A stretch of 64,000 nt of DNA. Source: a bacterium ADurb.Bin157. GTDB lineage: Bacteria; Muiribacteriota; Ozemobacteria; Ozemobacterales; Ozemobacteraceae. The DNA lies in NCBI GenBank assembly GCA_002070375.1, contig MWDD01000001.1, forward strand, positions 17,425 through 81,424, in the 5' to 3' direction. Below are positions 43,927 through 63,138 of the stretch, piece after piece. The position numbers and the translations under genes were made by a program. Under the pieces are notes generated by a model that was not told where the DNA came from, did no database searches, and saw only the letters and a program-made list of their open reading frames with translations. Each line of letters starts with the position of its first letter. Position 1 is the stretch's first letter.

Positions 43927-44027
43927 ATAAAAAACCCTCTTGCACTTTTGCGCATTTCCTGCTTAAATAAGCAAGAAAATAAGCATTCTGACTATCTACT
44001 TAAATTTTGAAAAGGAGTTTTCAGACT

Positions 44028-47124: not shown

Positions 47125-49716
47125 TTAAAGCCTTGCATCTATAATCGTTTTTAGTTTACCGGTACGACTGTTTCGGGTTATTTTTCCAGGTTTGTACCAT
47201 TCAATAGCAACAGTCATCCAGCCTTCATGCAAAGACTCGGCGATCTTATAAGACTCGTTTTTGAGTGCCTCTAACACAGCAACGTCAGAAACGGGTTTTT
47301 CAGCTTCAAGTCTGAGACAAAGCCGGTCTTTGCCTTCAAAGGTCTGAGCTTCAATCTGGAAAGACTGGCTGACAGGCAGCTTAGCAAGCCCTGCAGCCAC
47401 ATCAGCGGGCATAAGATTTATGCCCCCGATTACGATGAGTTCATCACATCGGCCCAGCAACTCAAACGATTTGCCTTTAAACCCGCACTTGCATGGTTCC
47501 GAGACAATCCATCGCCCCATGTCTCCGGTTTTATACCTAATTACAGGCATCAGTGTTTTATTCAAATTAGTTACAACTATTTCGCCCGCCTCATTAATTT
47601 CAGCCTGTTTACCGGTAATCGGCGAAATTATTTCACAGTAGCAATACTGGTCCAATACGTGGTGAATTGTGCCTGAAAGATGTTCGCACTGCCAACCTAC
47701 CGGCCCTGTATCAACGCAAGCATAGCCGGCAGAACGAATAATTTTTGCCCCTACAGTTTCTTTTAAAAACTTGCAGGTTTCAGGTCTTAGATGTTCACCG
47801 CCATATAATATTTTTTCGATCTTTATGTCCGATTTAAGTCGTTTAATTTCTTCCGCAAGTTTAATAATTATTGAAGGAAGCCCAACTACAGCATTCACAT
47901 CAAAAATTTTCAAATATTTCAAAGTGTTGCTTAAGTCAGAAGAACCGCCTACCGGCAAATTTAAGCATCCGAGATTCTCTAATGCTCTTCCGGCAACGTT
48001 AAAGCTTGTCCACAGATTGCCCGCAATAAACAAATTGGCAACTCTGTCAAATTTTGATAAACCGGCATTTCTGTAGATATCAGTCAGTAAATCTGTTACA
48101 TATTTGTATTCATCATTTGAATAGAAAGAAAATTTTGGGTTTCCGGTGGTTCCGCCCGAAGCGTATACATAAGCGTCAATTGGCTCTCTTGTTAATATAT
48201 CATTAGATTCGGGGGGTGAATTTTTGTAAAAGGTTTCTCTGTCAAGCAAAGGGAGTTTTTCAAAATTTTCAAATCCGCACCCGCCGGCCTTTTCAATAAT
48301 TGAGTTGTAATAAACAGAAGAATTAATTTGTGAAAGCAACTTTTCCACTCTGCTTTCGGGGGTATCTCTGTATTCAAGGGCAACCATATCTACTAAGCGT
48401 CTAAGCATAAATTCGCCCTCGTGAGGCGCTCCGTCGTGTCCTTCACTCATTCCGCCAATTTCGGTTACTCTTTTTGCTCCCAGTTCAAACAATTCGTCTT
48501 CAAGCCGAGCAAAACACTCAGGATATGCGCAAACACCTACTGTTTGCAAATATGATGACAAAGGCTTAACTTGAACAATTAAATCTTCTATCGAAGAAAT
48601 TCTTTTAATAAACAAAGTTCTGTTAAGGCATGAGACTTTAAACACGGGGTCATATTCAAGCACAAGCGTAAAACTGAAATCTTCCGGGCACTCAAGCCTT
48701 CCTTCGCCTTTAGCCTGCGACATTGTAGCCAGCTCGCGAACTTTTCTGATTTCTACTTTTTCATCGAAAGTTAAATTTCCCGCCGGCAAATCTTCGCTAA
48801 GCTTCAATAGCTCATCATAAAGATATTCCATCAACAAATGCGACGTTTTAATATCTTTGTCTAAAACATACACAACATGGGGCGAAGAGCAAGCCTGTTG
48901 ATCCCAGCGTGCCACATCCAATGCCAGTGAAGCGGCAATCTGAGGGGCAGTCGAAACCTTAATCTTTCGCCCTTCAATTACAGCAAAAGAAAATCTCGGG
49001 CCGTTTTCAACCAGCCTTGCAGCATCTCCCAATCTTGATTTAAGCGATTTCAAGGCCTCATACCCGCCCCAGAAAACAATAGTTGCAGGGGAATTAAGTA
49101 TCGGGTTCTCTATGCTTTCATCGCCGCCCTTCCACGAAATCGCCGCCTGATTGGGCCAAATAATACCGGCCGGGTCGTGCTCTTTTATGCTTTCTATGAA
49201 CAAAACAGGAAAAACCGTGTCTACACGAGACATTTTAAGAATATTTACATTTTTTGTGATTATACCTGATACAAGGCTATCCACAGCTCCGACAAAAACA
49301 TTGCCGGCAGTAAGATGCACTAAAACCCCACGGCTCTTGGCTTTGAGCTTGTAGCCCAAATGAGGCTGTTCTTCGCCCTCGTCAAATAATCGCAAAGAAT
49401 TAAACTCACCTTTAAGGCGTTTTTCCAGATTTTTTCTTGCGCAAATTTGACTTACCACATCAAACCCGGCGTCAGTCATTTCGGGGCTGAAATCTGTAAG
49501 TTTGGGCATAACCTCGGCCGCTTCAACCCTTAAGTGATAATTCGGATCTGCCCAAGCCGCAGAAACATTATCAAGAATATCAAGAATGCAGTCTATATCG
49601 GGGGTCGCCGCAATAGCAGCTCTCTCAAATGCTTCAGAAAGTATATCGGATATATTTTCTGAAGAAACAAATTCAGATTTGACAAATTTTCCAAAAACAC
49701 AGCATTTATTTTTCAT
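47125..49716 (-). CDS. fusion protein: LuxC-like acyl-CoA/acyl-protein reductase (N-terminal) plus PaaK/LuxE-like adenylate-forming domain (C-terminal)
   Basis: 863 aa. N-terminal aldehyde-dehydrogenase-like LuxC fold (about 1-450). C-terminal ASGGTTGNPKF adenylation motif and a PaaK-like body. Confidence 0.65.
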   Translation of the reverse strand: MKNKCCVFGKFVKSEFVSSENISDILSEAFERAAIAATPDIDCILDILDNVSAAWADPNYHLRVEAAEVMPKLTDFSPEMTDAGFDVVSQICARKNLEKRLKGEFNSLRLFDEGEEQPHLGYKLKAKSRGVLVHLTAGNVFVGAVDSLVSGIITKNVNILKMSRVDTVFPVLFIESIKEHDPAGIIWPNQAAISWKGGDESIENPILNSPATIVFWGGYEALKSLKSRLGDAARLVENGPRFSFAVIEGRKIKVSTAPQIAASLALDVARWDQQACSSPHVVYVLDKDIKTSHLLMEYLYDELLKLSEDLPAGNLTFDEKVEIRKVRELATMSQAKGEGRLECPEDFSFTLVLEYDPVFKVSCLNRTLFIKRISSIEDLIVQVKPLSSYLQTVGVCAYPECFARLEDELFELGAKRVTEIGGMSEGHDGAPHEGEFMLRRLVDMVALEYRDTPESRVEKLLSQINSSVYYNSIIEKAGGCGFENFEKLPLLDRETFYKNSPPESNDILTREPIDAYVYASGGTTGNPKFSFYSNDEYKYVTDLLTDIYRNAGLSKFDRVANLFIAGNLWTSFNVAGRALENLGCLNLPVGGSSDLSNTLKYLKIFDVNAVVGLPSIIIKLAEEIKRLKSDIKIEKILYGGEHLRPETCKFLKETVGAKIIRSAGYACVDTGPVGWQCEHLSGTIHHVLDQYCYCEIISPITGKQAEINEAGEIVVTNLNKTLMPVIRYKTGDMGRWIVSEPCKCGFKGKSFELLGRCDELIVIGGINLMPADVAAGLAKLPVSQSFQIEAQTFEGKDRLCLRLEAEKPVSDVAVLEALKNESYKIAESLHEGWMTVAIEWYKPGKITRNSRTGKLKTIIDARL

Positions 49717-49730
49717 ATAAGATTTCCCGC

Positions 49731-50858
49731 TTACTTTAGCAAATCAAGGGCATTAATAGCGCAGCCTTTATGTTTGGCCAAGCCCGCACGCCCAACTATT
49801 CTGAATGTTTTACCCGGTCTTTTGCATGGGCAGTTATCCTCGATAACCGCTTTATCGGTTGTCAGCAAAGAAATTGACGGGTAGGAAGACAAATAGGGTG
49901 TCATAAGATAAAGCAGCCCCTCTTCGCCGTCTTTAACCGGTTGCAATGTTTCGGGGTCAACAGCCATAGCCCTAGAGTAAATAGGAACATGAAGCCTGCC
50001 ATGTTCGCAGTCGACATACGGAATACCATGTTCGACCATTCCAAACAAATCTCTCAAGTTTTCACCGGGAATATTCAGAATTTTATTGATTCTCTTTTTG
50101 AAAACATCTTTTGTTACTTCAAGATTCTTATGCATTTTCCAACCGCCGCCGGTAATAATGAAAGAATCGCGGTTGAAATTCAGATTAATCCCTCTTTTTT
50201 CGAGCCAATCGCATACTTGCCACAAGTAAGCGGGGAAACCGAGAATTCTGACCGGTTCGGGTCTTTGCGAAAAATCTATAAGTTTTTTTGCGGTAGCTTC
50301 GAGATCGAAACTAAAATCATTCAATTTTTTATTCCATTTTATTGCATAAAAGACAGTTCTGTGAGCAGTCAAATCGGTTAGTAATTTATCGGAAAAAGCT
50401 GTTCCAACACTTTTAGCGTATTTGGGGTCATATGTAAAACACAAGTAGTTAACCTTTTGAGAATGATTTACCATACCGAGAGACGAAAAAATATTTTCTA
50501 CAATTTTTAAGATTCTTTTGTATGATCTGGCATCAAGTATTATAGAACTTTTTCGGCCTCCTGTGCCTGAAGATGTGAGTTCGAGTTTTACTTGCTTATC
50601 GGGAACAGAAGCCAGCTTAAACTCTTTAAAAACTGTCACGAGCAATGGCGGAATCTGTTCGGGCAAATAGTCGCTTTTAAAATCTATCAAGCCCGACAGG
50701 TTTAAAAAAGATTTAAATTCAGGACATTTAGAAACATGCCACCTTAAAGCTTCGTTCATAGCTTTATTAAACAATTCTTCGGTTTGTGGTGTATGATCGA
50801 ATGCCCGGGTAATATCGAAAAGTTTGCCGCAATTTTCAAAAGGTTTACCTTCAGCCAA
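49731..50858 (-). CDS. LuxE-family acyl-protein synthetase
   Basis: 375 aa. LTSSGTGG motif. Size and architecture of luciferase-operon LuxE. Confidence 0.65.
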   Translation of the reverse strand: MAEGKPFENCGKLFDITRAFDHTPQTEELFNKAMNEALRWHVSKCPEFKSFLNLSGLIDFKSDYLPEQIPPLLVTVFKEFKLASVPDKQVKLELTSSGTGGRKSSIILDARSYKRILKIVENIFSSLGMVNHSQKVNYLCFTYDPKYAKSVGTAFSDKLLTDLTAHRTVFYAIKWNKKLNDFSFDLEATAKKLIDFSQRPEPVRILGFPAYLWQVCDWLEKRGINLNFNRDSFIITGGGWKMHKNLEVTKDVFKKRINKILNIPGENLRDLFGMVEHGIPYVDCEHGRLHVPIYSRAMAVDPETLQPVKDGEEGLLYLMTPYLSSYPSISLLTTDKAVIEDNCPCKRPGKTFRIVGRAGLAKHKGCAINALDLLK

Positions 50859-52035
50859 GTCTCCACTCCTCGTCGAAATCAGGCTGGCAGCGGACTAGCA
50901 AATCATACCAGCATTTCATAAAAGCATCTAAAAATCTACGATTATTATCTACTAAGTTCATATCCATAAAATCAAGTTTCTCGAAAGACCTTGAAAATAT
51001 AAGATAATCCTCGCGCAACCCTTCGTCGTTCATTCTCATGCCGGGGAAATACGCGCAAGGCAAAAACTTAGCGTCTAAAGCAAGTCTTTGTCTTTCGGGA
51101 AGAAACGCACTAACCAGCATTTCAATGTATCTCATTCCTGATTTGGCGGCTTCTTCACAAAACCACATTAAGGTTTTTCTTAAATTTTTCCCTGAGAACC
51201 TGTAGCCCAGTATAACTCCGTTACCGTCTAAGGGATTAAAGTTTACAAAAAAATCAGCCGAATTGTCCTTTGCCGAATAAAGCATATTAGGGTCGGTAAA
51301 GGGAAAAAATACTCTTTGCATCATATCTTTGTTTTGATATTCATAAAATTTATCGGTTACGGCTTTTATATCGCTGCAAACATCAAAACATATAGGTCGG
51401 CCCATTTTTCGAGGGTCTTTTGATTCAAGCTCAATAATTTCGGGATCTTCAAGATTTAAATCAGTTTGCACAATTTTGTAAAAATCAAGCATTTGAGGAA
51501 TCAATTTAGGTGTTTTTCTTCGGAATTCAAGACATTTTGGGCCAAAATAGACCTCTAACCCGTGTGTTTCGAACGATTCCACTTTTCTGACGTTAGGGAA
51601 AATACCGGTCGATTTAAAATTTAAATGTTCAAGCACCATTTGCGGTGCAAAGCTGACGGTTCTGGTTGTGGCATAAATAGCATCGCAGGTTCTTGTTTTT
51701 TCGGTGAGTTTTTCAAGGCTGTCCTTTACCATCACCCGCATCACATCTTGCCCTCGAAATTCACTGAGCACAACAGCAGCGTAAGACTTGCCAAGTTTAT
51801 TGACCGGGTCTATCGCAAAAATAACGGAGCCAATAAGCCTGTCACCTATTTTTGCCACAGTCCAAAAGTAGCCGGGATCTTCAACTTTAGCCGCAACAAC
51901 TTCAGGGTCAGCTACTTCCGGTAGGGTATATTTTCCTTTATAGACTTCGATATAAAGGTTAATTATCGCATCAACATCTTCAATTGAAGCAGTAGAGAAA
52001 CGCACAATTCTATTGTCTTTAAGAATCAGTTGCAA
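50851..52035 (-). CDS. tandem GNAT-fold acyltransferase
   Basis: 394 aa. N-terminal GNAT core (IGSVIFAIDPV...) and a second GNAT-like half. TTG start. 8-nt overlap with luxE. Confidence 0.55.
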   Translation of the reverse strand: MQLILKDNRIVRFSTASIEDVDAIINLYIEVYKGKYTLPEVADPEVVAAKVEDPGYFWTVAKIGDRLIGSVIFAIDPVNKLGKSYAAVVLSEFRGQDVMRVMVKDSLEKLTEKTRTCDAIYATTRTVSFAPQMVLEHLNFKSTGIFPNVRKVESFETHGLEVYFGPKCLEFRRKTPKLIPQMLDFYKIVQTDLNLEDPEIIELESKDPRKMGRPICFDVCSDIKAVTDKFYEYQNKDMMQRVFFPFTDPNMLYSAKDNSADFFVNFNPLDGNGVILGYRFSGKNLRKTLMWFCEEAAKSGMRYIEMLVSAFLPERQRLALDAKFLPCAYFPGMRMNDEGLREDYLIFSRSFEKLDFMDMNLVDNNRRFLDAFMKCWYDLLVRCQPDFDEEWRLG

Positions 52036-52163: not shown

Positions 52164-52565
52164 TCAGTGAATCTTTACGCTTATCATTCGGGGCTGCGTT
52201 TCTTTTGCAAAGGGCAAGAACACCTTCAACACGCCATTATTAAGCTCGGCATTGATGTTTTCCTGATCGACCGATTCTGCCAATTCAAATTGTCTGAAAT
52301 AATTTGAGGGCTCATATTCTCTCATCAAAAAACCGGTATCAAGATCAGGAGTAATGTGCCCCTCGATTGTCAATATGTTTTTATCTACTGACAACTTCAA
52401 ACCCTCTTTATCTACCCCCGGCAAGTCCGCAACAAGCTTCAACCCGTTTTCTTCTTCATAAATATCTGTTAATGGGGTTATAAATGAATCCGGTTCTCTT
52501 GTAACCTCGCGTTTAACCATCTGAGTTTCGTTATTTTTTGTATTAGGTATAGTTTTTTCAGCCAT
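52164..52565 (-). CDS. Hsp20/alpha-crystallin small heat-shock protein
   Basis: 133 aa. Alpha-crystallin domain, ...GVLKVFLPF C-terminus. AAGGAG ribosome-binding site. Confidence 0.85.
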   Translation of the reverse strand: MAEKTIPNTKNNETQMVKREVTREPDSFITPLTDIYEEENGLKLVADLPGVDKEGLKLSVDKNILTIEGHITPDLDTGFLMREYEPSNYFRQFELAESVDQENINAELNNGVLKVFLPFAKETQPRMISVKIH

Positions 52566-52603
52566 GACTTTTATCTCCTTTTCGTTTTTATTCAGGTCTC
52601 GCC

Positions 52604-53050
52604 TCAGTTAACTTTAATTGAAATTTGCTTCGGTTTCGCTTCTTCTGCCTTAGGCATTGTAATTTTCAAAATGCCGTTAACATATTCGGCTTCGACCTTT
52701 TCCGGTTCGATTGGCACAGGAAGCTCTATCGTTCTCACAAATTTACCCGCAGAGCGTTCGCTTCTGTGGATCTTTTCTTCGGGAATATCCAATTTGATTT
52801 TTTCACCGCTGATTGTGAGCTTGTCACGCAGGGCAGAAACTTTCAGATTTTCAACATCAATACCGGGCGCAAGCGCTTCAACAGTAATTTTTTCATCATC
52901 GGCAGACACATTCATCATGGGAAAATGCCTTCTGGATATTCCCGGCAAAAACGCATTTCTCGGATAGTTTTCCCAGGCATTCAACCGCGCGAGTTCACCA
53001 ATTTGACTTTGCAATTGTTCCATTTCTTTGAAAAAGTTCCATATAGACAT
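52604..53050 (-). CDS. Hsp20/alpha-crystallin small heat-shock protein
   Basis: Alpha-crystallin domain, GILKITMPK. Start set at the ATG at 53050, which has an AGGAGG ribosome-binding site 7 nt upstream. The ORF track's 53071 GTG start lies inside the ribosome-binding site. Confidence 0.85.
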   Translation of the reverse strand: MSIWNFFKEMEQLQSQIGELARLNAWENYPRNAFLPGISRRHFPMMNVSADDEKITVEALAPGIDVENLKVSALRDKLTISGEKIKLDIPEEKIHRSERSAGKFVRTIELPVPIEPEKVEAEYVNGILKITMPKAEEAKPKQISIKVN

Positions 53051-53118
53051 ATCTATTCCTCCTTTGACCACCCTTTCGAGGGCGTATTCAAATTAAATTT
53101 CATTCACGCAAATATATA

Positions 53119-53135
53119 TTGCAAACACCGTGCCA
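53119..53135 (-). promoter_or_regulatory. sigma-54 (RpoN) -24/-12 promoter TGGCACG-GTGT-TTGCA upstream of hsp20
   Basis: Exact match to the TGGCACG-N4-TTGCW consensus, about 70 nt upstream of the hsp20 ATG. Confidence 0.6.
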
Positions 53136-53251
53136 ACTTTTAAAACTCGCTTCCAATGCGGATTTAAGATTATTTAATGGAATGGCGCAACGCAGTCTGC
53201 AACGATGCGCTACGTTGCAACAAGACGTCTGTCGGTGGTATAATCCCGTAA

Positions 53252-54469
53252 ATGAAAAAATACGACACAATTGTAATAGGTGCGGGTCCCTCAGGCATTA
53301 TGGCAGCGATCACCGCAACAAAGAACAACAAAAAATGTTTACTGATTGAACGCAACAGTTACGTCGGCGCAAAAATTTTAGCCAGCGGCGGCGGACGATG
53401 CAACTTAAGCAACACATTACCGACCGAAGCTTTCGTAAGTATGTTTAGCCGCGAAGGCAAGTTCATGTTAAGCAGCTTAAAAACATTCGGAAGCAAAGAA
53501 TTAACGGAATTTCTGGCCTCTGTCGGCGTTAAATGCCACGCTCCCGACGGGTTCAGGATTTTTCCCACAACCCACGATTCTAAAACCGTTGTAAACGCTT
53601 TAACCCAAGAGTTACAGCGTTTGAACACCGACATTCTTATGTCTCATCGGGTTACTGAAATAAACAACCGTAACGGCAGCTGGGAAATAGATAACGCTTA
53701 TTTTTGCAACAAACTGATTATTGCCACCGGCGGTCTTGGTTTTATGCACTTGGGGACCGAAGGCGACGGCTACAAATTCGCGACCGCAACCGGGCACAAA
53801 ATTACGAAGCTTTTTCCGGCAATGCTGCCGATTGAGACAAAAGAAACCTGGGTTAAAAACTGCCGCGCGGACACTATCGGCAAAGCGGTCGTTCAGATTA
53901 ACCTGCCAAAACACTGCAATAAAAAGGCTGTCGGAGATTTAATTTTCACATCGACAGGCATCAGGGGGCCTGTCGTATTAGATTTTGCGCGAGAAATAAC
54001 GCCTTTAATCGATGAATACGGCGAGGTTCCTTTGCTGATCAATTTGGTTGGCGGGCTGAACGAAGAACAAATAAGAGCTAAAATTAAAAGTTTGCCGCAA
54101 AACAAAATTTCCCTGCCGCTGCCCGAGATGTTAAACACATTGGTGCCGGAACCGCTTTGCGTAGAATTATGCAAATTAGTCGGGATCGATTTTTCTTGCA
54201 CTATCAGTAAAGTTGAAAAGATAAAAAGAGACAAACTGATAAAATTACTCGCAAAGACCCCTCTTACCGCAATAAGCTGCGGAGGGTTCAAAGAAGCCAT
54301 GGTTACGAGGGGCGGAGTGAGTCTTAAAGACATCAATTGCCAAACCTTAGAAAGCAAAATAAGTAAAAATTTATATTTTTGCGGCGAGGTATTAGACCTA
54401 GACGGGCCGTGCGGGGGATATAACCTTCAATGGGCATTCACGAGCGGATTTATAGCAGGATCAAATTAA
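53252..54469 (+). CDS. HI0933/YhiN-family FAD-dependent oxidoreductase
   Basis: 405 aa. IVIGAGPSGIMAA dinucleotide-binding motif, GGGRCN. Consensus -35/-10 (TTGCAA-18-TATAAT) ends 7 nt before the ATG, so the mRNA is probably leaderless. Confidence 0.75.
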   Translation: MKKYDTIVIGAGPSGIMAAITATKNNKKCLLIERNSYVGAKILASGGGRCNLSNTLPTEAFVSMFSREGKFMLSSLKTFGSKELTEFLASVGVKCHAPDGFRIFPTTHDSKTVVNALTQELQRLNTDILMSHRVTEINNRNGSWEIDNAYFCNKLIIATGGLGFMHLGTEGDGYKFATATGHKITKLFPAMLPIETKETWVKNCRADTIGKAVVQINLPKHCNKKAVGDLIFTSTGIRGPVVLDFAREITPLIDEYGEVPLLINLVGGLNEEQIRAKIKSLPQNKISLPLPEMLNTLVPEPLCVELCKLVGIDFSCTISKVEKIKRDKLIKLLAKTPLTAISCGGFKEAMVTRGGVSLKDINCQTLESKISKNLYFCGEVLDLDGPCGGYNLQWAFTSGFIAGSN

Positions 54470-54540
54470 TTTTTTTAGGGTATTGTACTTAAAAAAAACC
54501 TGTGGTAGGATTGCCCTATCAAAATTCGAGGTTAGAGATT

Positions 54541-55458
54541 TTGCTTATATCTACGCTTGTTGACGACTTTTTAACCGTCATAGAAAAAGAAAAAAGAATG
54601 TCTGAGCACACCGTTCGCGCTTACAGGAATGATTTAACCGTATTTTGCGACTGGTTGGCAGAAAATGGCATTTTTGATGCTATTGAGCTCGACAGCTTGA
54701 GTCACGCAAAAATCAGATCATACTGGGCAAAGCGCCGCACCGAAGGGCTTTGCGCATTAAGTATGAGGCGCGGGCAGTCGGCTTTACGCGGTTTCTTTAA
54801 ATACGCGATGCGCAGAAAAGAAATAACCAAAAATGCAGCTGAGACTATGGAATCGCCGAAAACACGCAGAGGCCTGCCAAAAGCGCTAAGCGAAAACATC
54901 ACGGAGACCTTTTTAAACGCACCGGACAAGTCGACTTTAATGGGGCTAAGAGACAGAGCAATACTTGAAACAATTTATGGCAGCGGATTGCGCGTGTCGG
55001 AAGCATCAAATTTAACCTATGACAACGTTGATTTTTCAAATCAAATTGCGCGAATTACCGGAAAAGGAAACAAAACCAGATTAGCACCCATGACCCCGTC
55101 GTCTTGCGAGGCTATAAGATCATATTTAGAGGCAAGAAACAATAAATTGCCTGAACTTAAAGATGTAAAACACATTTTTTTAAATAAAGCAGGAACCCAA
55201 TTAAGCACGAGAAGCATCGGAAGAATGATAAACAAATACACGTTGCAAAGCGCTTTAATGCTTCATGTAACGCCGCATCAGTTCAGACACAGCTTTGCGA
55301 CGCATCTGCTGAATAACGGAGCGGACATAAGAGCGGTTCAAGAAATGCTTGGACACGCGAATCTTTCAACTACACAAATATACACGCAAATCAGCAAAGA
55401 AAAGCTGATGCAAACGTATCAGCTTTGCCACCCGCGGTCGGGGCATAAAGATTTATGA
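54541..55458 (+). CDS. site-specific tyrosine recombinase XerC/XerD family
   Basis: R...HxxR...Y catalytic residues (RHSFATHLL, GHANLSTTQIYT). TTG at 54541 with a GAGGT ribosome-binding site preferred over the GTG at 54502. Confidence 0.8.
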   Translation: MLISTLVDDFLTVIEKEKRMSEHTVRAYRNDLTVFCDWLAENGIFDAIELDSLSHAKIRSYWAKRRTEGLCALSMRRGQSALRGFFKYAMRRKEITKNAAETMESPKTRRGLPKALSENITETFLNAPDKSTLMGLRDRAILETIYGSGLRVSEASNLTYDNVDFSNQIARITGKGNKTRLAPMTPSSCEAIRSYLEARNNKLPELKDVKHIFLNKAGTQLSTRSIGRMINKYTLQSALMLHVTPHQFRHSFATHLLNNGADIRAVQEMLGHANLSTTQIYTQISKEKLMQTYQLCHPRSGHKDL

Positions 55459-55528
55459 TAAAAAGACTAAATAAATGTTGCCAATGTTCCGATTGATATT
55501 GAAGAAACTAAAAAACGGGGGCAAAAAA

Positions 55529-55951
55529 ATGTTTGAACGAGTAACCAACACAACAACTTTACAGCTTTTACAAAAGGGCTTGGATGTGTCTTCAAAGAGA
55601 CAGTCTGTTATATCGAACAACATTGCAAACGTAAATACTCCCGGCTACAAGAGACAATTTGTTACTTTTGAAGAAGAAATGGCAAAAGTCATCGACGGAG
55701 TTTCAGACTTGCGCGGACTTCGCAGCGACGTTAGGCATTTCCCTATAAATGATATTTCGCACAAGGCTTGTGAGCCTGTAACAGTCACTGACAAAGGGCG
55801 CATCATGCGCAATGACAAGAATAATGTAGACATAGACATGGAAATGGGAGATCTGGCAAAAAACACTATGAGTTACCAAATATTTGCCAACAGAATTTCA
55901 GGAATGTTCGCACAGCTAAACGATGTAATTGTCAGAGGAGGTAAAGCATAA
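55529..55951 (+). CDS. flgB: flagellar basal-body rod protein FlgB
   Basis: SNNIANVNTPGYKR rod N-terminal motif. ATG at 55529 preferred (141 aa) over the track's 55475. Confidence 0.85.
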   Translation: MFERVTNTTTLQLLQKGLDVSSKRQSVISNNIANVNTPGYKRQFVTFEEEMAKVIDGVSDLRGLRSDVRHFPINDISHKACEPVTVTDKGRIMRNDKNNVDIDMEMGDLAKNTMSYQIFANRISGMFAQLNDVIVRGGKA

Positions 55952-56391
55952 TGGGTATATTTAATTCGATTAATATCTCTGCTACAGGTTTGAGCGCTGA
56001 GCGCCTCAGAATGGACGTTATCTCTAATAACATAGCGAATGTGAATACAACCAGAACAGAAGACGGCGGGCCTTTCAGAAGGCAGATGGTTATTTTTCAG
56101 TCGATCGAAGACCCAAAAAAATTGCCGATGGGCAAACAACCCCAGGAACCTTCTTCGGGGCGCGGCGTGCGCGTTAAATCCATAATGGAAGATATGAGTC
56201 CGTTTAAGATGGAATATGACCCCGAAAACCCTGATGCGGACGCAGATGGATATGTGAGAAAGCCAAATGTAACCATAGTGCACGAAATGGTTGATATGAT
56301 AACCTGCACCAGAGCGTATGAAGCAAACGTTACTTGTATAAATTCAGCCAAAGATATAACTTCTGCGGCACTCAGCATAAGCAAAAATTAA
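55951..56391 (+). CDS. flgC: flagellar basal-body rod protein FlgC
   Basis: 146 aa. SNNIANVNTTR, C-terminal TRAYEAN motif. TAATG coupling with flgB. Confidence 0.9.
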   Translation: MGIFNSINISATGLSAERLRMDVISNNIANVNTTRTEDGGPFRRQMVIFQSIEDPKKLPMGKQPQEPSSGRGVRVKSIMEDMSPFKMEYDPENPDADADGYVRKPNVTIVHEMVDMITCTRAYEANVTCINSAKDITSAALSISKN

Positions 56392-56437: not shown

Positions 56438-56734
56438 ATGAGAATTAATGAAGGTTTCTTACATGGCGCGGACTGCAAGCCGCAAAAATCGCAGGTCAAC
56501 TCAAAAGAGCAATGGAATTCATTTTTAGACACACTACAAACGGCTATTGAAGAGGTTGACAATCTTGGCAAGGCATCAGAAAAAATGACGCAGGATGCGG
56601 TTTTGGGTCGGGTAGAAAACCTTCACGATGTAATGATTGCAGCGGAAAAAGCAAAAACTGCCATGAATTTAACGTTAGAAGTGCGTGGTAAAGCCCTTGA
56701 AGCGTATAAAGAAATTATGCGCCTTAATTTTTAA
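56438..56734 (+). CDS. fliE: flagellar hook-basal body protein FliE
   Basis: 98 aa, position and size. C-terminal LEVRGKALEAYKEIMRL. Confidence 0.8.
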   Translation: MRINEGFLHGADCKPQKSQVNSKEQWNSFLDTLQTAIEEVDNLGKASEKMTQDAVLGRVENLHDVMIAAEKAKTAMNLTLEVRGKALEAYKEIMRLNF

Positions 56735-56831: not shown

Positions 56832-58733
56832 ATGGCGGACTTTTTACGGCAACTATGGGAGCCTATCTCGAAATTATCTCGGGGCAAACAGATCGGTTTA
56901 GGCAGTATCATTCTTTTGGTATTTATCGGGGTTTCAACAGCCTCTATGTGGAGCACCCAAAAGACTTATATTCCACTATTTGAAGAAAAGCTTAAACTTG
57001 AGGATGCAAGCAAAATCATTACTCAATTAAAAGCGAGCGGCATCTCACATAAATTAGGCGACAGCCCTGTTGATATTTTAGTTCCGATTGAAGACAAAGC
57101 TTTGGTATTATTGAATTTAGCCGAGAACAAAAACTTACCTCTTGCCAAACCGGGTTGGACACAACTGATAGACAGCAGAACACTTTTTTCGGGAACAACA
57201 GACAAAGAATTCGACTTAAACTACATACGCGGTCTTCAAGCATCATTAGAAGAAGCTCTAAAGAGAATGGGGCCCATTAAAGATGCAACCGTAAATATTG
57301 TTAAACCCAAAAAAGAGTTATTTAAAGACGAGCAAGCTGAGCCTACAGCAAGCATTTTGTTAGAGCTGGATCCTTTAAAAACGATCACTCCCGAAAACAT
57401 TCGCGCAATCAGAGACTGGGTTTGCTCAGCGGTTGAAGGCTTAGAGCCCGAAAACGTAAGAATAGCGGATTTTGAAGCTCATGATTTAACGCGCCTCATC
57501 GAAGAAGAAGACGCCATGACCTTAGACAAAGCGCAAACCACACAGATGCGCGTTACCCGTGACAGAGAGAAACACTTGGGCAGCAAGCTTACAAAAATGC
57601 TCAGTAAAATGTTTGGCGGGCAAGATAAAGTAATAGTAAGCATCAGCTTGGACATGGATTTTGACCAAAAAGAAGCTGTCAGTGACGTAGTTATACCATT
57701 AGAGGGAACTACAAAGGGTATTTTGATATCTCAAAAAACCGAACAGGAAGAATATAAAGGCACTGACACAATTAAAGATGGTGAGCCCGGCTTAAACTCG
57801 AACCTTCAGCCCGGCGCTCCGTCATACCCCGGCAATGAAGGGGCAGGCAACAACGAATATAAGCGAAGCGGCAATATAGAGAATTACGAAATAACGAAAT
57901 CTAAAGAGAAGTTTATAAAAGAACAGGGCTCAATAAGAAGACTGACTGCTTCTGTTGTAATAAACGACGACCCTGACAAGCTAAAAACTATTGAAGACCA
58001 AATAACCAGTGTTGCCCAAAACGCAATTGGCTATAACAAAGACAGGGGCGACAAACTTACTTTAATGGTAATGAAATTCAAAAACGAAAGCGCGCTGGCA
58101 GCAGTCTCTGCGGCAAAAAACAAGAGAGAGCAGGAGAAAAAGATGTTCATGATCGTTGTTGGTTTATTCATGGCGATCCCGACTTTTATAGGCATAATAT
58201 ATATATTTGTAAGAACCTCAAGAGTCAGGGCTATTGCACGTGAAGAAGCACGTCTCAAAGAAGTGGCCCTCGAGGCAGAAAAACACAGAAAAATTAGAGA
58301 AGACGAAATTAAGCGCCAAATGCAAGCCCAATGGAAAGAATGGGAACTCAGATACGAAGACATCAAGAATTTCTTTCCTGAAATCACTGACTTTAACGAA
58401 AAGAAAAATAGGGTTCAAAATCTTCGTCTCGAAGCTTATAAGTTTGCAAAAGAAAATGATTCTTACCCCTTTGACTTCGAAGAAATGCGTCCTGAGGAGC
58501 AATTCACATACAGAAAAGCTTTCGACAGCAAAAATGACGGCACAATTGACAAGCATATTGAGCGTCTCGAAGCTCTCATTCAAGAACGAAATAAAGCTCG
58601 CGAAGAGGAGCTTAAAGATCTTAACAGAGAAGCTAACGCTCGCGAACAGCTTGAAGCACGAATCCGAGACCTTGTTGTTACTAAGCAGGAAGATGCTGTT
58701 CAAGTCATGCGCCTATGGCTTGGCAAAAGCTAA
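56832..58733 (+). CDS. fliF: flagellar MS-ring protein FliF
   Basis: 633 aa. TM1 at about residue 25, TM2 at about 440-460. Extended K/E-rich coiled-coil C-terminus. Confidence 0.9.
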   Translation: MADFLRQLWEPISKLSRGKQIGLGSIILLVFIGVSTASMWSTQKTYIPLFEEKLKLEDASKIITQLKASGISHKLGDSPVDILVPIEDKALVLLNLAENKNLPLAKPGWTQLIDSRTLFSGTTDKEFDLNYIRGLQASLEEALKRMGPIKDATVNIVKPKKELFKDEQAEPTASILLELDPLKTITPENIRAIRDWVCSAVEGLEPENVRIADFEAHDLTRLIEEEDAMTLDKAQTTQMRVTRDREKHLGSKLTKMLSKMFGGQDKVIVSISLDMDFDQKEAVSDVVIPLEGTTKGILISQKTEQEEYKGTDTIKDGEPGLNSNLQPGAPSYPGNEGAGNNEYKRSGNIENYEITKSKEKFIKEQGSIRRLTASVVINDDPDKLKTIEDQITSVAQNAIGYNKDRGDKLTLMVMKFKNESALAAVSAAKNKREQEKKMFMIVVGLFMAIPTFIGIIYIFVRTSRVRAIAREEARLKEVALEAEKHRKIREDEIKRQMQAQWKEWELRYEDIKNFFPEITDFNEKKNRVQNLRLEAYKFAKENDSYPFDFEEMRPEEQFTYRKAFDSKNDGTIDKHIERLEALIQERNKAREEELKDLNREANAREQLEARIRDLVVTKQEDAVQVMRLWLGKS

Positions 58734-58749: not shown

Positions 58750-59796
58750 ATGCCTCCGGAACCATTAATAAATTTACCTGAAGGTGAAATAGGTAACCTT
58801 CAAATATCAGGCAAAACAAAAGCAGCAATTTTGCTTGTATTTCTGGGACCAGAAACCAGCGGCGGAATCTTAAATTCTCTGACAGACGCTGAAATAGAAG
58901 TTTTGACTATAGAAATAGCCAAACAAAGAAAAATTTCCAGCGATGAAAAACTTCAGGTTTTGCTTGAATTCGAGCAAATGATGATGGCCCGAAAGTTTTA
59001 TTCCGAGGGTGGTCTTGATTACGCAAAGTCTCTGTTGGAACAAACAATAGGACCCGGCAAAACTCTCGAAATACTCAACAAAATGGGGACGACCTTGCAG
59101 GTTCAGCCATTTGAAGCAGCCAGGACAGCAGATCCGACGCAGCTTGCATCCTTAATACAAAACGAGCATCCACAACTGATCGCAATGATACTCGCTTATT
59201 TACAGGCTGACAAATCGGCAATTATTCTTCAGTCTATGGCTCAAGAAAGCCAGGTTGAAATAGCGAAAAGATTGGCTTTAATGGACAGAACCAGCCCGGA
59301 AGTAAGCCGGGAAGTTGAAAACTATCTTGAAGAATGCTTGTCTTCGATTATTGGACAAGATTTCACTCAAATTGGCGGTATAGATTCTCTTATCGGCATA
59401 TTAAATACGGTTGAGCGCTCAACTGAAAAGAACATCATTGAAACCATGGAAGTTCAAGAGCCTGCTCTTGCCGAAGAAATCAAAAAACGCCTGTTTGTAT
59501 TCGAAGATGTTGTTCTTATTGATGATCGCGGCATACAAGCACTATTTAAAGAAATCGATCAGAAAGATCTTTCTATTGCTCTTAAGGGTGTAACAGACGA
59601 AGTTAAAGACAAATTCTATCGAAACATGTCAAAACGCGCCGCAGAAATGTTAAAAGAAGAAATGACTTTTATGGGTCCGGTGAGAATGCGCGATGTAGAT
59701 CAGGCTCAGCAGCGTATTGTTGCCATAGTTAAGAAACTTGAAGCAAATGGAGACCTTGTTATAGCAAGACCCGGCGAGGAGGAATTAGTTGGCTAA
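58750..59796 (+). CDS. fliG: flagellar motor switch protein FliG
   Basis: 348 aa. EHPQ motif (NEHPQLIAMIL), C-terminal torque helix (RAAEMLKEEM). Confidence 0.9.
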   Translation: MPPEPLINLPEGEIGNLQISGKTKAAILLVFLGPETSGGILNSLTDAEIEVLTIEIAKQRKISSDEKLQVLLEFEQMMMARKFYSEGGLDYAKSLLEQTIGPGKTLEILNKMGTTLQVQPFEAARTADPTQLASLIQNEHPQLIAMILAYLQADKSAIILQSMAQESQVEIAKRLALMDRTSPEVSREVENYLEECLSSIIGQDFTQIGGIDSLIGILNTVERSTEKNIIETMEVQEPALAEEIKKRLFVFEDVVLIDDRGIQALFKEIDQKDLSIALKGVTDEVKDKFYRNMSKRAAEMLKEEMTFMGPVRMRDVDQAQQRIVAIVKKLEANGDLVIARPGEEELVG

Positions 59797-60238
59797 TTTT
59801 AATCATCAGGTACCAAATAAAAATCTTACGGGATTAGAAATACTCGCGAATATCATGCAGCATTGCACACCTCAAACGAATCGCAATATCATGAGCGGAC
59901 TTCAAGCTTCTATGCCTGATATCGTTAGCAAATTGCGCCAAAAAATAATAACTTTTGAAGATCTGGCTTACGCTGATTCAAGAGGAATTCAGAAGCTTAT
60001 TAAGATGGTTAACATGAGAGACTTGGCAATAGCTGTAGTAGGCTGCTCCGAGGCTCTGGTCAAAAATATAGCTCAAAATTTATCTCAAAATCGCATGGCA
60101 GATTTCAAATCAGAAATTACCCTTGTAGGTCAGGTATCTCAAAATAACGTTTACGAAGCCAGAGACCGGATAATGAGCATAGTTCTTGAACTTATTGAAA
60201 GCAGAGATTTATTTATCAATCGTCCCGGAAGCGACTAA
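59789..60238 (+). CDS. FliG C-terminal-domain-like (MgtE_N-like) paralog, 149 aa
   Basis: Aligns to FliG residues about 230-348 (FEDxxxxDxRGIQxL...DLxIA...RIxxIVxxL...RPG). 8-nt overlap with the fliG stop. Confidence 0.6.
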   Translation: MANFNHQVPNKNLTGLEILANIMQHCTPQTNRNIMSGLQASMPDIVSKLRQKIITFEDLAYADSRGIQKLIKMVNMRDLAIAVVGCSEALVKNIAQNLSQNRMADFKSEITLVGQVSQNNVYEARDRIMSIVLELIESRDLFINRPGSD

Positions 60239-60256: not shown

Positions 60257-61369
60257 ATGGGAAGAATTCTTAAAGCACACCAAATCAGAATAGACACCGA
60301 ACACCCGGTTTTTATATCTAACAATAAAACAACTGAGGCTCCCGCAGAAAAAAGAATTGTCACAGAATATGATGACGGGTTTGCTGATGAGGTGTTCAAA
60401 GCTCTGTCGCCTGAACGATTAGCCGGCTCAGGTGAAAAAATGGTCTCAAAAAACAAACCCAAAAACAATGAGGATGCAGAAACAGCAGCCCCCCCAAAAA
60501 AGCCTGACTCTGCACTTTCCGCAGACGCAAAAAAAACAAGATCCTTTGCTGCGCTTGAAGCAATAAGAGTTAAAGAACTCGAAATTGAGGCACTTAAACA
60601 GGAACTTCAAAACTGGGAATCAGAATTACAAGCAAAAGAAAAAGAACTTTCGGCAAAGGAAAAAGAAATAAGCGAAACACTTATAAAACGACGCCAAGAA
60701 ATTGAAGCCGAAGCGTCGAACACTCTTAAACTGGCAAAAGAGGCGGCTTCCTCAATTACACAATCTGCGCAAGCAGAGGCAGAGGCGATAAGAAAAACCG
60801 CACGTGCCGAAGAAACGGCAATAAGAGAAAAAGCTTATAATGAAGGTCATAAAGAAGGTTACGCGGTCGGCGAGTCAAAAGGCATATCAGCCGGCGAACA
60901 ATCCGCAGTCCAAGAAATTAACTTTGACTGGCAAAATCTGATGAAAGAATCGGAAATGCTCGTGAAAGAGCTTCAAACAAGCAGAATGGGCATATTAAAA
61001 TCATCAGAAGAGGAAATGTTAAAGCTTGTTGTCGCTTTCGCCAAAACAGTTATAAAAACAGAGCCTTTGATACAGCCGGAAATAGTGTTAAAAAACTTAG
61101 ACGCGGCGATTAACAAAATTTCCGAAACAGATAAAATCATTCTCAGAGTCAACCTGCGAGACAAAAATATGTGTGAAGACCACAAGAACAAATTCTTGTC
61201 TAAGTTGGCTTCGATATCCGAGCTTTCAATAGTTGAAGATAACAGCCTCTCTCCCGGCGGCATTAAAATTGAAACCGAAGCAGGCACAATAGATGCAACC
61301 GTCGACTCGCAAGCGAAGGAACTTGAAAAAGCATTGCTTGAAAAATATAACCGCAACAACCAAAGCTGA
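60257..61369 (+). CDS. fliH: flagellar assembly protein FliH
   Basis: 370 aa. Coiled-coil E/K-rich N-terminus, FliH C-terminal domain. Precedes fliI. Confidence 0.8.
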   Translation: MGRILKAHQIRIDTEHPVFISNNKTTEAPAEKRIVTEYDDGFADEVFKALSPERLAGSGEKMVSKNKPKNNEDAETAAPPKKPDSALSADAKKTRSFAALEAIRVKELEIEALKQELQNWESELQAKEKELSAKEKEISETLIKRRQEIEAEASNTLKLAKEAASSITQSAQAEAEAIRKTARAEETAIREKAYNEGHKEGYAVGESKGISAGEQSAVQEINFDWQNLMKESEMLVKELQTSRMGILKSSEEEMLKLVVAFAKTVIKTEPLIQPEIVLKNLDAAINKISETDKIILRVNLRDKNMCEDHKNKFLSKLASISELSIVEDNSLSPGGIKIETEAGTIDATVDSQAKELEKALLEKYNRNNQS

Positions 61370-61372
61370 TAA

Positions 61373-62686
61373 ATGAACGAAAATAATTTTTTTAACAAAT
61401 ATTTCCGGACCTTAGAAAATACGGAGACAATAAAAGCCAACGGGCGTGTCACGCAAGTTGTAGGTTTGCTGATTGAAGCGACCGGTCCTCAAAACCCTGT
61501 CGGCGATGTTTGCAATATTATGACAGCCGGCGGGCCGCTCCCATGCGAAATTGTCGGCTTCAGACGCAACAGCGTTTTACTCATGCCATTGCTTCACACC
61601 GAAGGCATACGACAAGGCTGTGCCGTAGTTCCCACAGGAACACCTCTGACGGCACCTGCCGGGGACGCGCTTCTCGGGCGTCTCATAGACGGTCTTGGAA
61701 ACCCTATAGACGACAAAGGCGATTTGCCCGACAATTTAAAGCGCGTGCCGATTAATAACACCCCGCCGAACCCGATGACCAGAAAAAGAATTTTATCCCC
61801 AATCGAAACCGGAATAAAAGTTATAGACGGGCTTCTTACAATAGGCGCCGGTCAAAGAATGGGAATTTTTGCAGGCTCGGGCGTAGGCAAGAGCACCCTG
61901 ATGGGCATGATATGCAGATCATCAAAAGCAGACATAAATGTTATTTCTCTTGTCGGAGAACGCGGACGCGAAGTTAAGGATTTTTTGGAAAAAGATCTTG
62001 GCCCGGAAGGCTTGAAACGTTCTGTTATAGTTGTGGCCACCTCTGATCAACCGGCCTTAGTAAGAGTTAAAGCCGCCTTCACCGCGACAGCTATTGCAGA
62101 ACATTTCCGAGACCAAGACAAGAATGTAATGCTGATGATGGACTCAGTAACAAGGTTTGCAATGGCACAAAGAGAAATTGGACTTGCCGTGGGCGAACCA
62201 CCTACAACAAGAGGTTTCCCGCCATCTGTTTTCGCCATGCTGCCAAAGCTTCTTGAGCGAGCGGGTACGGCCAGGAGAGGTTCAATAACAGGAATTTATA
62301 CTGTCTTGGTAGATGGGGGAGATATGGATGAGCCTATCACCGACGCTGTTCGCGGCATACTTGACGGCCATCTTCTGCTAAGCAGACAGCTTGCCACCCA
62401 AAACATTTTTCCTGCAGTCGATATTTTGGGAAGCATATCCCGACTTATGCCTGAGATTGCCGAAAAAGAGCACTTTAATGCGGCGGGAAAACTCAGAAAC
62501 ATTTATTCAACATACAACAAAAACGCGGATGCGATAAGTTTGGGAGCCTACAAAGCCGGCTCTGACCCAAAAATTGACGAAGCCATAAAAAAACAACCTC
62601 TGATTGAGAACTTTATAAAACAGCCCATAATCGAAGGAATTCCCTTTGATCACAGTATAGCAGAAATAAAAAAAATAGTAGGTTAG
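61373..62686 (+). CDS. fliI: flagellum-specific ATP synthase FliI
   Basis: 437 aa. Walker A GSGVGKST, Walker B LLMMDSVTR. Confidence 0.95.
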   Translation: MNENNFFNKYFRTLENTETIKANGRVTQVVGLLIEATGPQNPVGDVCNIMTAGGPLPCEIVGFRRNSVLLMPLLHTEGIRQGCAVVPTGTPLTAPAGDALLGRLIDGLGNPIDDKGDLPDNLKRVPINNTPPNPMTRKRILSPIETGIKVIDGLLTIGAGQRMGIFAGSGVGKSTLMGMICRSSKADINVISLVGERGREVKDFLEKDLGPEGLKRSVIVVATSDQPALVRVKAAFTATAIAEHFRDQDKNVMLMMDSVTRFAMAQREIGLAVGEPPTTRGFPPSVFAMLPKLLERAGTARRGSITGIYTVLVDGGDMDEPITDAVRGILDGHLLLSRQLATQNIFPAVDILGSISRLMPEIAEKEHFNAAGKLRNIYSTYNKNADAISLGAYKAGSDPKIDEAIKKQPLIENFIKQPIIEGIPFDHSIAEIKKIVG

Positions 62687-62694
62687 CTTATTAA

Positions 62695-63138
62695 ATGGTA
62701 TTCAAATTCAGATTTCAACAATTACTGGACATATCTTTATTTGAAGAAGATGAAATCAAAAATAGACTTACGGCAAAAAATGCGCAAATAGCTGAGATCA
62801 CAGCAAAGATTAACAAATATGAAGAGGATTACGAGCGCAATATTGCCGAGAGAGCAGAAGAAATGAGTAAAGGTCATTTTGAAAAGTTTCAAATGTATGA
62901 GCCTTACCTAAATGTTATTTTAAAATCTAAATTATTTTTTGAAAACGAGCTTGAAGTTCAAGAGCGACAAAAACAAAAAATAATGACGGAACTATTAGAA
63001 AAACAGAAAACCAGAAAAACATATGAGATATTAAGAGAAAGAGATTTTGAAAACTTTAGGAAAGAAATGTTTAAGCGAGAGCAGAAGGTTTTAGATGAAT
63101 TCGGGAAAAAATCGATTTTAACCTTAGATGACGAATAA
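62695..63138 (+). CDS. fliJ: flagellar export chaperone FliJ
   Basis: 147 aa coiled-coil directly after fliI. Confidence 0.7.
   Translation: MVFKFRFQQLLDISLFEEDEIKNRLTAKNAQIAEITAKINKYEEDYERNIAERAEEMSKGHFEKFQMYEPYLNVILKSKLFFENELEVQERQKQKIMTELLEKQKTRKTYEILRERDFENFRKEMFKREQKVLDEFGKKSILTLDDE

Follow-up and report, generated by a model that had tools for sequence, protein, structure and literature searches.

The stretch analysed here (the window: 64,000 nt of contig MWDD01000001.1, GenBank assembly GCA_002070375.1, from bacterium ADurb.Bin157, whose habitat is the anaerobic digester) carries on its forward strand a block of early flagellar genes in which an additional short reading frame lies between fliG and fliH. 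Pfam assignments identify FliF, FliG and FliH in this block, and the additional gene encodes a protein of 149 residues that corresponds to the C-terminal region of FliG alone (hereafter the paralog). A preliminary description, made from the sequence alone, had reported this open reading frame as an extra paralog of the FliG C-terminal domain that overlaps the end of fliG by 8 nt, and its coordinates, length and overlap proved to be exact (Table 1). The exact protein sequence is present at the National Center for Biotechnology Information (NCBI) as OQB50947.1 ('bacterium ADurb.Bin157'), and it was seen on 57 contigs.

With respect to expression, the signals at the junction with fliG argue that the paralog is a real, separately translated gene. 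Specifically, the TAA stop codon of fliG (59794-59796) falls within the 8-nt overlap with the start of the paralog, and a Shine-Dalgarno sequence inside the last fliG codons precedes the TTG start by 6 nt. The junction GAGGAGGAnnTnAnTTGGCTAR, which includes this TTG, is identical in all 20 loci compared, and in each of them fliG ends 7 nt past the paralog start. Locus L028 has a variant junction in which the TTG start is still kept, and in a more distant lineage (L027) the two genes are separated by a gap of 70 nt, with the paralog having its own Shine-Dalgarno sequence and an ATG start. A scan for promoter- and terminator-like signals inside the operon gave none above shuffled expectation. 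This gene order and overlap constitute a classic layout for translational coupling, which we infer here. Moreover, the conserved TTG is placed for reinitiation by ribosomes that have just ended fliG, so that the paralog would be made together with FliG in the early basal-body operon.

At its 3′ end, the window allele reads RPGSD followed by TAA (60236-60238), and the 99%-identical protein P0001 reads RPGSDYKG. A Tyr codon has become a stop codon in the window allele, which is 3 residues shorter as a result. Several other members of the cluster also have 152 residues, and both the 149- and the 152-residue forms are common in public assemblies.

The paralog belongs to the FliG_C domain family. 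The Pfam FliG_C model (PF01706) matches it over profile positions 3-105 of 108 with E = 7.5e-22 (78.1 bits; cut-off 23.3), and residues 12-149 align with residues 207-344 of the window FliG at 30% identity, ungapped over 138 residues (BLASTP, E = 2e-24). A profile built from the family is likewise collinear with Thermotoga maritima FliG (1LKV), ungapped over 137 residues with E = 2e-28. Homology to the FliG C-terminal region is far beyond chance, and the relationship that the preliminary description had proposed is upheld by the profile search it had suggested. The additional likeness to MgtE_N that had been mentioned there was not borne out, as the paralog has no Pfam MgtE_N (PF03448) match at E ≤ 1 and FliG itself matches that family only below threshold. 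In the Pfam scan, no second significant family besides FliG_C was found in the paralog, and there were no matches to FliG_N or FliG_M. Against TIGR00207, the NCBIfam equivalog model for FliG, the paralog scores 72.9 bits (cut-off 226.7) and is matched at model positions 197-332 only; it is thus not a FliG proper. Since it falls below this cut-off and lacks FliG_N and FliG_M, OQB50947.1 is over-annotated as 'Flagellar motor switch protein FliG', and a database correction is called for, as such proteins are widely labelled in this way.

In terms of structure, the paralog is predicted to consist of the ARM_C hairpin and the C-terminal helical domain of FliG only. The AlphaFold2 model, computed with the family alignment, has a mean predicted local distance difference test (pLDDT) score of 86.8 and contains nine helices, with only residues 1-7 disordered. 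In a Foldseek search of the PDB, the significant matches were all FliG, with a probability of 1.00 to 16 FliG chains. The C-terminal bundle gave root-mean-square deviations (rmsd) of 1.1-1.7 Å (1.7 Å over 97 columns for 1qc7_A), and the MotAB-bound FliG_C of 8ucs_H was superposed at 1.3 Å. Domain limits are available from Salmonella C-ring structures, in which the ARM_C hairpin spans residues 198-233 and FliG_C residues 234-331 (PMC11302681, PMC11087270). The ARM_C part of the paralog starts at the position of the Gly-Gly linker, with T14-G15 aligned with G209-G210 of the window FliG, and in the model it comprises helices at residues 15-23, 28-41 and 43-52. When residues 14-149 of the model are considered as a unit, the orientation of ARM_C relative to the bundle fits clockwise-state Salmonella FliG (8wiw_3, 8umx_B and 8vib_G; template modelling (TM) score 0.72-0.76, rmsd 2.7-3.2 Å), and the fit to counter-clockwise-state chains is poorer (TM score 0.60, rmsd 9-12 Å). 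This clockwise-like superposition is a property of the prediction and no evidence on function.

Table 1. Window coordinates of the flagellar genes and of the features within the FliG_C-only paralog
Feature	Residues	Position	Strand	Remarks
flgB		55475-55951	+	
flgC		55951-56391	+	
fliE		56438-56734	+	
fliF		56832-58733	+	
fliG		58750-59796	+	348 aa; three-domain rotor protein; last 8 nt overlap paralog
Shine-Dalgarno sequence GAGGAGG		59776-59782	+	inside last fliG codons; 6 nt before TTG of paralog
FliG_C-only paralog gene		59789-60238	+	149 aa; TTG start at 59789
ARM_C (FliG_CN) hairpin	14-52	59828-59944	+	equivalent to Salmonella FliG 198-233
MFXF hinge counterpart IITF	53-56	59945-59956	+	
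FliG_CC helical bundle	57-149	59957-60235	+	predicted, pLDDT 93-96 over most
Torque-helix counterpart NLSQNRMADFKSEI	97-110	60077-60118	+	aligned with FliG NMSKRAAEMLKEEM
fliH		60257-61369	+	370 aa; Pfam FliH E = 7e-26; begins 18 nt past paralog stop codon
fliI		61373-62686	+	
fliJ		62695-63138	+	

With respect to distribution, a word-indexed search returned 20 proteins of 137-159 residues, all of them FliG_C-only. A profile search of 1.84 billion representatives returned about a dozen clusters of complete 146-155-residue proteins at 133-240 bits, together with a few shorter fragments, and full-length FliGs ranked below these paralog clusters at no more than 108 bits. With the family profile, the FliGs of Rifleibacteriota (Candidatus Rifleibacteriota, an uncultured candidate phylum) reach 100-110 bits, those of other phyla up to 108 bits and the FliG of T. 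maritima 102 bits. A scan of GTDB species representatives found the paralog in 19 genomes, of which 11 carry the titles Riflebacteria, Rifleibacterium, Rifleibacteriota or Ozemobacter(aceae); a further six go only by 'uncultured bacterium', and two are evidently mis-binned metagenome-assembled genomes (MAGs). The order fliF-fliG-paralog-fliH(-fliI-fliJ) was found in 26 of 26 loci with flanks read, from Rifleibacteriota and related metagenomic contigs (L001-L004, L005-L023, L024 and L027-L031), across which FliG identity to the window FliG ranges from 90% down to 64%; the 26 loci include lineages in which this identity is as low as 62-72%. The presence of an additional, separately translated gene at this site, which the preliminary description had regarded as unusual and had proposed to look for in related flagellar operons, is therefore a constant feature of the flanking-read loci, and it was found in Rifleibacteriota-type operons only. 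Three stand-alone FliG_C genes of other lineages (P0042, P0091 and P0169) sit outside flagellar operons, and from these comparisons the fliG–fliH intergenic position appears to be peculiar to the Rifleibacteriota-type clade. In the literature, we found no description of a FliG_C gene between fliG and fliH.

In all bacterial flagellar motors FliG is the component that receives torque and mediates switching, and its stator contacts involve five charged residues, K264, R281, D288, D289 and R297 in the established E. coli numbering. These positions were mapped by gapless motif alignment in 36 paralogs and 20 cognate FliGs, and all five charges are present in each of the 20 cognate orthologues. In the window paralog four of the five are replaced, the residues being V at the K264 position, N at R281, S at D288 and S at R297, with E at D289. 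Across the 36 paralogs, K or R occupies the K264 position in 22, R281 is kept in 22 and R297 in 21, and D or E is found at D288 in 13 and at D289 in 35. Loss of four charges is a trait of the window subclade (with P0001-P0005 and L004) and not of the family. The statement in the preliminary description that the paralog lacks the charged torque-helix residues holds insofar as these four are replaced, but it was made in the wrong register. The segment quoted as the torque-helix counterpart, ALVKNIAQNLSQNRM, is mostly the preceding helix; RAAEMLKEEM of FliG aligns with NRMADFKSEI, in which D105, K107 and E109 are kept, and in most family members three or four of the five charges persist.

Conservation within the family follows a distinct pattern. 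Alignment A1 shows no variation at N97, S99, D105, E109 and I110 of the torque-helix counterpart, and conservation of at least 90% at K107; D105 is specific to the family, FliG having a hydrophobic residue at that position. The final Phe of the MFXF counterpart is present in 36 of 36 paralogs, and the FliG motif is L/M-F-V-F in 20 of 20; the first two positions vary in the paralogs (I/V/L/M and L/M/I/V/F/R), and the first Gly of the Gly-Gly linker has become T, S or other residues. A conservation comparison identified the first linker Gly, the first two MFXF residues, R281, D288 and PVR(297) as conserved in FliGs of all phyla and relaxed in the paralog, and by their alignment to FliG these relaxed positions are switching-hinge and stator-contact sites. 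The best conserved block of the family is the first ARM_C helix and its loop (EILANIMRHC..KTNRNI), followed by FEDLAYAD just past the hinge.

Substitution rates were estimated by the Nei-Gojobori method over 39 unsaturated genome pairs. The median ratio of non-synonymous to synonymous rates (dN/dS) is 0.11 for the paralog, 0.013 for FliG_C and 0.041 for FliG N+M. In 38 of the 39 pairs the paralog ratio lies between 0.01 and 0.24, the exception being 0.49 against the most divergent lineage, L024. Median dN is 0.233 for the paralog versus 0.034 for FliG_C, a rate about 7 times faster at non-synonymous sites, and mean pairwise identity is 66% and 92%, respectively. The mean protein distance of the paralog (0.57) is close to that of FliJ (0.58), and structural core proteins have distances of 0.12-0.38. 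Taken together, these comparisons indicate that the paralog is under purifying selection across Rifleibacteriota and clearly functional, while being held under much weaker constraint than the domain from which it derives. The two also differ in charge, with FliG_C in these genomes having a mean isoelectric point (pI) of 5.0 and a net charge of -5.4 and the paralog a mean pI of 9.2 and a net charge of +3.5; for the window paralog the values are pI 7.8 and net +1.

In terms of function, we tentatively favor, at appreciably less than even confidence, a role for the paralog as a rotor-associated accessory subunit or modulator at the FliG rim that docks on FliG and generates no torque. The preliminary description had suggested capping or modulation of the C-ring or help in assembly, which are reasonable candidate roles. 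Within FliG itself, ARM_C forms only half a domain, a hairpin that stacks on the middle-domain core of the neighbouring FliG and touches FliM (PMC11302681, PMC11087270). As this stacking and the contact with FliM are the only known role of ARM_C, the paralog would be expected to dock on FliG as well. Under the proposed mechanism, the paralog would be co-produced with FliG from the early basal-body operon, its ARM_C hairpin would dock on FliG at the C-ring rim nearest the membrane, and the docked protein would act as a structural or modulatory, non-torque subunit, much as FliN does with respect to FliM. Its net positive charge, opposite to that of the acidic FliG_C, would favor packing against or between FliG_C domains. 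Constraint is relaxed exactly at the stator-contact and hinge positions, which makes a second torque generator unlikely, and natural proteins that have FliG_M and, behind it, a tandem array of two to four FliG_C domains provide an independent precedent for a second ARM_C+CC module alongside a FliG_MC unit, which we count in favor of this role. A bolder version, in which the upper C-ring has two components and the basic FliG_C-only protein is stoichiometric, alternating with or stacked on the acidic FliG_C as a FliM/FliN-like pair, strikes us as rather unlikely. If true, it would mean an altered spacing, number or geometry of stator-contact sites and a new rotor architecture.

Several observations weigh against an accessory rotor subunit. 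That the paralog docks on FliG is purely what we infer, and in the closed 34-mer FliG ring each middle-domain core is already filled by the ARM_C of a neighbour. The torque-helix counterpart is among the better conserved segments of the family, and most paralogs retain R281, K264 and R297, which is also compatible with stator binding. Moreover, given the loss of four of five charges in the window subclade, the family may not be functionally uniform. Rate covariation (mirror-tree) with operon proteins gave the top partial correlations for the FliH N-terminal extension (r = 0.86) and FliG_N (0.83), with FliI in the background also reaching 0.73; the pairs are non-independent and fast parts saturate together, so this covariation is not specific and we draw no conclusion from it. 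A search of the literature returned nothing on the flagella of Rifleibacteriota and no motor images, these organisms being known here from MAGs only.

Because a closed ring offers no vacant middle-domain core, a transient chaperone or cap for FliG assembly is a serious rival to the accessory-subunit role, although we judge it unlikely on balance. Here, the free ARM_C would occupy the core of unassembled FliG, where it would block premature head-to-tail polymerisation or prime the open conformation (for the domain-swap model of FliG stacking, see PMC11087270), and once the neighbouring FliG takes its place as the ring forms on FliF, the paralog would be lost and would not be part of the completed motor. 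Such a factor would be served by the architecture and translational coupling described above, as well as by the relaxed stator-contact residues; the weak TTG start fits sub-stoichiometric amounts, and the evolutionary rate matches that of the export chaperone-like FliJ, unlike the rates of structural core proteins. However, a chaperone would have no need for the whole C-terminal bundle or for a conserved charged face on the torque-helix counterpart, and the FliG of other bacteria is not known to require a factor of this kind, its ARM_M being able to find a partner within the same molecule. A stator-binding module, whose torque-helix counterpart would be inserted between MotA subunits to recruit or park stators or to act as a competitive brake on torque, is a more doubtful proposition. 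Its helix (NMSQRxLxDLKxEI) is well conserved, the acid at D289 is nearly always present and the frequencies of R281, K/R264 and R297 given above would suit such contacts, the domain superposes closely on the MotAB-bound FliG_C of 8ucs_H, and isolated FliG_C binds MotA5B2 (PMC11302681). Nonetheless, the window subclade has replaced four of the five charges and D288 is lost in most members, the ARM_C hairpin as the most conserved part would be superfluous, and a decoy made constitutively and in step with FliG translation would defeat its own purpose. None of motA, motB, fliM and fliN lies within the window.

Two further explanations are effectively excluded. It is very improbable that the paralog is a decaying, functionless remnant of a partial tandem duplication of fliG, even though it outpaces FliG_C at non-synonymous sites, has lost canonical functional residues and, in the window allele, falls 3 residues short of its 152-residue relatives. 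At least 36 distinct sequences, from lineages reaching down to about 36% identity, preserve an intact reading frame free of indels over 137 residues, and the low dN/dS in all but one of the 39 pairs, the conserved start and Shine-Dalgarno sequence and the confident AlphaFold2 fold all argue against decay. A frameshifted continuation of fliG, which the preliminary description had itself named as a reading that would undo its claim, or an obligatory +1 fusion of FliG with the paralog, is scarcely credible. The reading frame does lie in the +1 frame relative to fliG with a Shine-Dalgarno-like element upstream, superficially like the prfB site. However, the window FliG scores 386 bits against TIGR00207 (cut-off 226.7), contains FliG_N, FliG_M and FliG_C, and is complete to FliG_C profile position 108 of 108; in addition, the 6-nt spacing between Shine-Dalgarno sequence and TTG is that of an initiation site, and the GGC before the stop is a poor +1 slip site. 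The 70-nt gap in L027, with an ATG start and a separate Shine-Dalgarno sequence, rules out an obligatory fusion. The remaining probability falls to something that we have not considered.

To our knowledge, known lineage-specific additions to the flagellar motor are mostly periplasmic or stator-associated, and those at the FliG layer itself are uncommon. That a whole phylum has a co-translated copy of only the stator-facing half of FliG would suggest a rotor subunit not seen before or an assembly factor devoted to FliG. Alternatively, the paralog may be a natural dissection that shows what the ARM_C+C module does alone.

Other products of the operon also have distinctive features. FliF is 631-633 residues long in nine loci with gene calls (window fliF; L001-L004, L024, L028) and has a cytoplasmic tail of about 170 residues, highly charged and coiled-coil-like, after the second transmembrane segment (at about residues 437-459). 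Salmonella FliF has 560 residues, and the tail here is about 80 residues longer; it would be a possible extra docking site at the junction of the MS-ring and C-ring. In FliH, the Pfam FliH domain covers only residues 228-355 of 370, and the N-terminal 130-150 or so residues are low-complexity, coiled-coil sequence that evolves faster than anything else in the operon (mean distance 0.80). The gene past fliJ (window 63174 to the window end, + strand; L004:7695-8594; L001:9931-10845) encodes a membrane-anchored coiled-coil protein with sub-threshold MgtE_N and FliG_M matches at its C-terminus (E ~3e-4), probably a flagellar protein akin to YlxF, FlbB or MotE. Between fliJ and the coiled-coil gene, L004, L002 and L028 have an extra gene of 118-123 residues with no Pfam match, and the window is without it.

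Directly 5′ of flgB, the window contains a XerC/XerD-type recombinase gene (54502-55458), as does L028, and hslV-hslU occupy this place in L001, L002, L003 and L024. Farther upstream lie an HI0933-like flavoprotein gene and an Hsp20 gene (in the 52164-54469 region), an unassigned 394-residue reading frame (50851-52035), and, on the minus strand at 47125-50858, an 863-residue fusion of a LuxC-like acyl-CoA reductase with an AMP-binding domain, adjoining a LuxE-like acyl-protein synthetase (375 residues). The htpG gene is at 44007-45980.

FliG_C modules also occur in other proteins outside this clade. In the metagenomic proteins P0029, P0031 (L032), P0034, P0037, P0052, P0139, P0116, P0107, P0033 and P0062, FliG_M is followed by 2-4 tandem FliG_C domains; P0033 (996 residues) has a FliM domain and five DUF4116 repeats in front, and P0062 (1699 residues) has TPR repeats and a weak MotA_ExbB match. 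Long matches with two FliG_C domains were considered as fusions of FliG with the paralog, and this was ruled out since both copies are canonical FliG_C and the architectures are unrelated. P0043 (774 residues) is a natural FliF-FliG fusion (YscJ_FliF, FliF_C, FliG_M and FliG_C). Orphan stand-alone FliG_C genes encoding 147-161 residues were located in other lineages, at a distance from flagellar genes, at L025 6001-6477, L026 4727-5170 and L033 812-1297; one of the orphans adjoins a dCache sensor, near a gene with a guanylate-cyclase domain, and another follows an AMP-binding enzyme.

In comparison with known systems, PADLOC gave no match, and the closest relative is the C-terminal region of FliG itself (PF01706; T. 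maritima 1LKV/1QC7, Salmonella 8UMX). The paralog shares its fold and both of its modules, ungapped over 137 residues, and keeps the last MFXF Phe, the NMS motif, the D289-equivalent acid and the core residues. Unlike FliG, it has no N and M domains and would bind neither FliF nor, through the EHPQR motif, FliM, and it differs from FliG_C in its positive charge, in keeping the contact and hinge residues only in part and in its faster evolution. The orphan and multi-FliG_C metagenome proteins (P0042, P0091, P0169; P0029/31/33/34/37/62/107/116) are similar in carrying ARM_C+CC modules outside a canonical FliG. However, they score 100-160 bits with the generic FliG_C model versus 45-80 bits with the model of the paralog family, the contexts read are not flagellar operons, and by these comparisons they are independent inventions.

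Small cytoplasmic proteins that act at the FliG-MotA interface are represented by the PilZ proteins YcgR and MotI and by the EpsE clutch (for the YcgR model, see PMC12393566). Unlike the paralog, these regulators are subject to conditional expression or ligand control and lack co-translation with fliG, and the paralog has no PilZ or glycosyltransferase domain. Additional FliG-derived proteins in a motile lineage are found among the spirochetes, where FliG-1 and FliG-2 of Treponema pallidum are about 30% identical and both bind FliF (PMC1943423). The spirochete FliG1 and FliG2 are full-length three-domain proteins encoded at separate loci, whereas the paralog is a 149-residue C-terminal fragment without FliG_N encoded between fliG and fliH. 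A Leptospira transcriptome table also lists an unstudied 'FliG C-terminal domain-containing' paralog (PMC13066512). With respect to genetic design, FliM/FliN and SctQ/SctQ-C offer a parallel, in that a short copy of the C-terminal domain of the preceding C-ring protein is made from the same operon; the C-terminal copies of SctQ and of Thermotoga FliM arise by internal translation (PMC4832279). FliN and SctQ-C have a SpoA fold, in contrast to the ARM and helical modules of the paralog, and the co-assembly that has been demonstrated for them is what the paralog, as a putative partner of FliG, would be expected to share.

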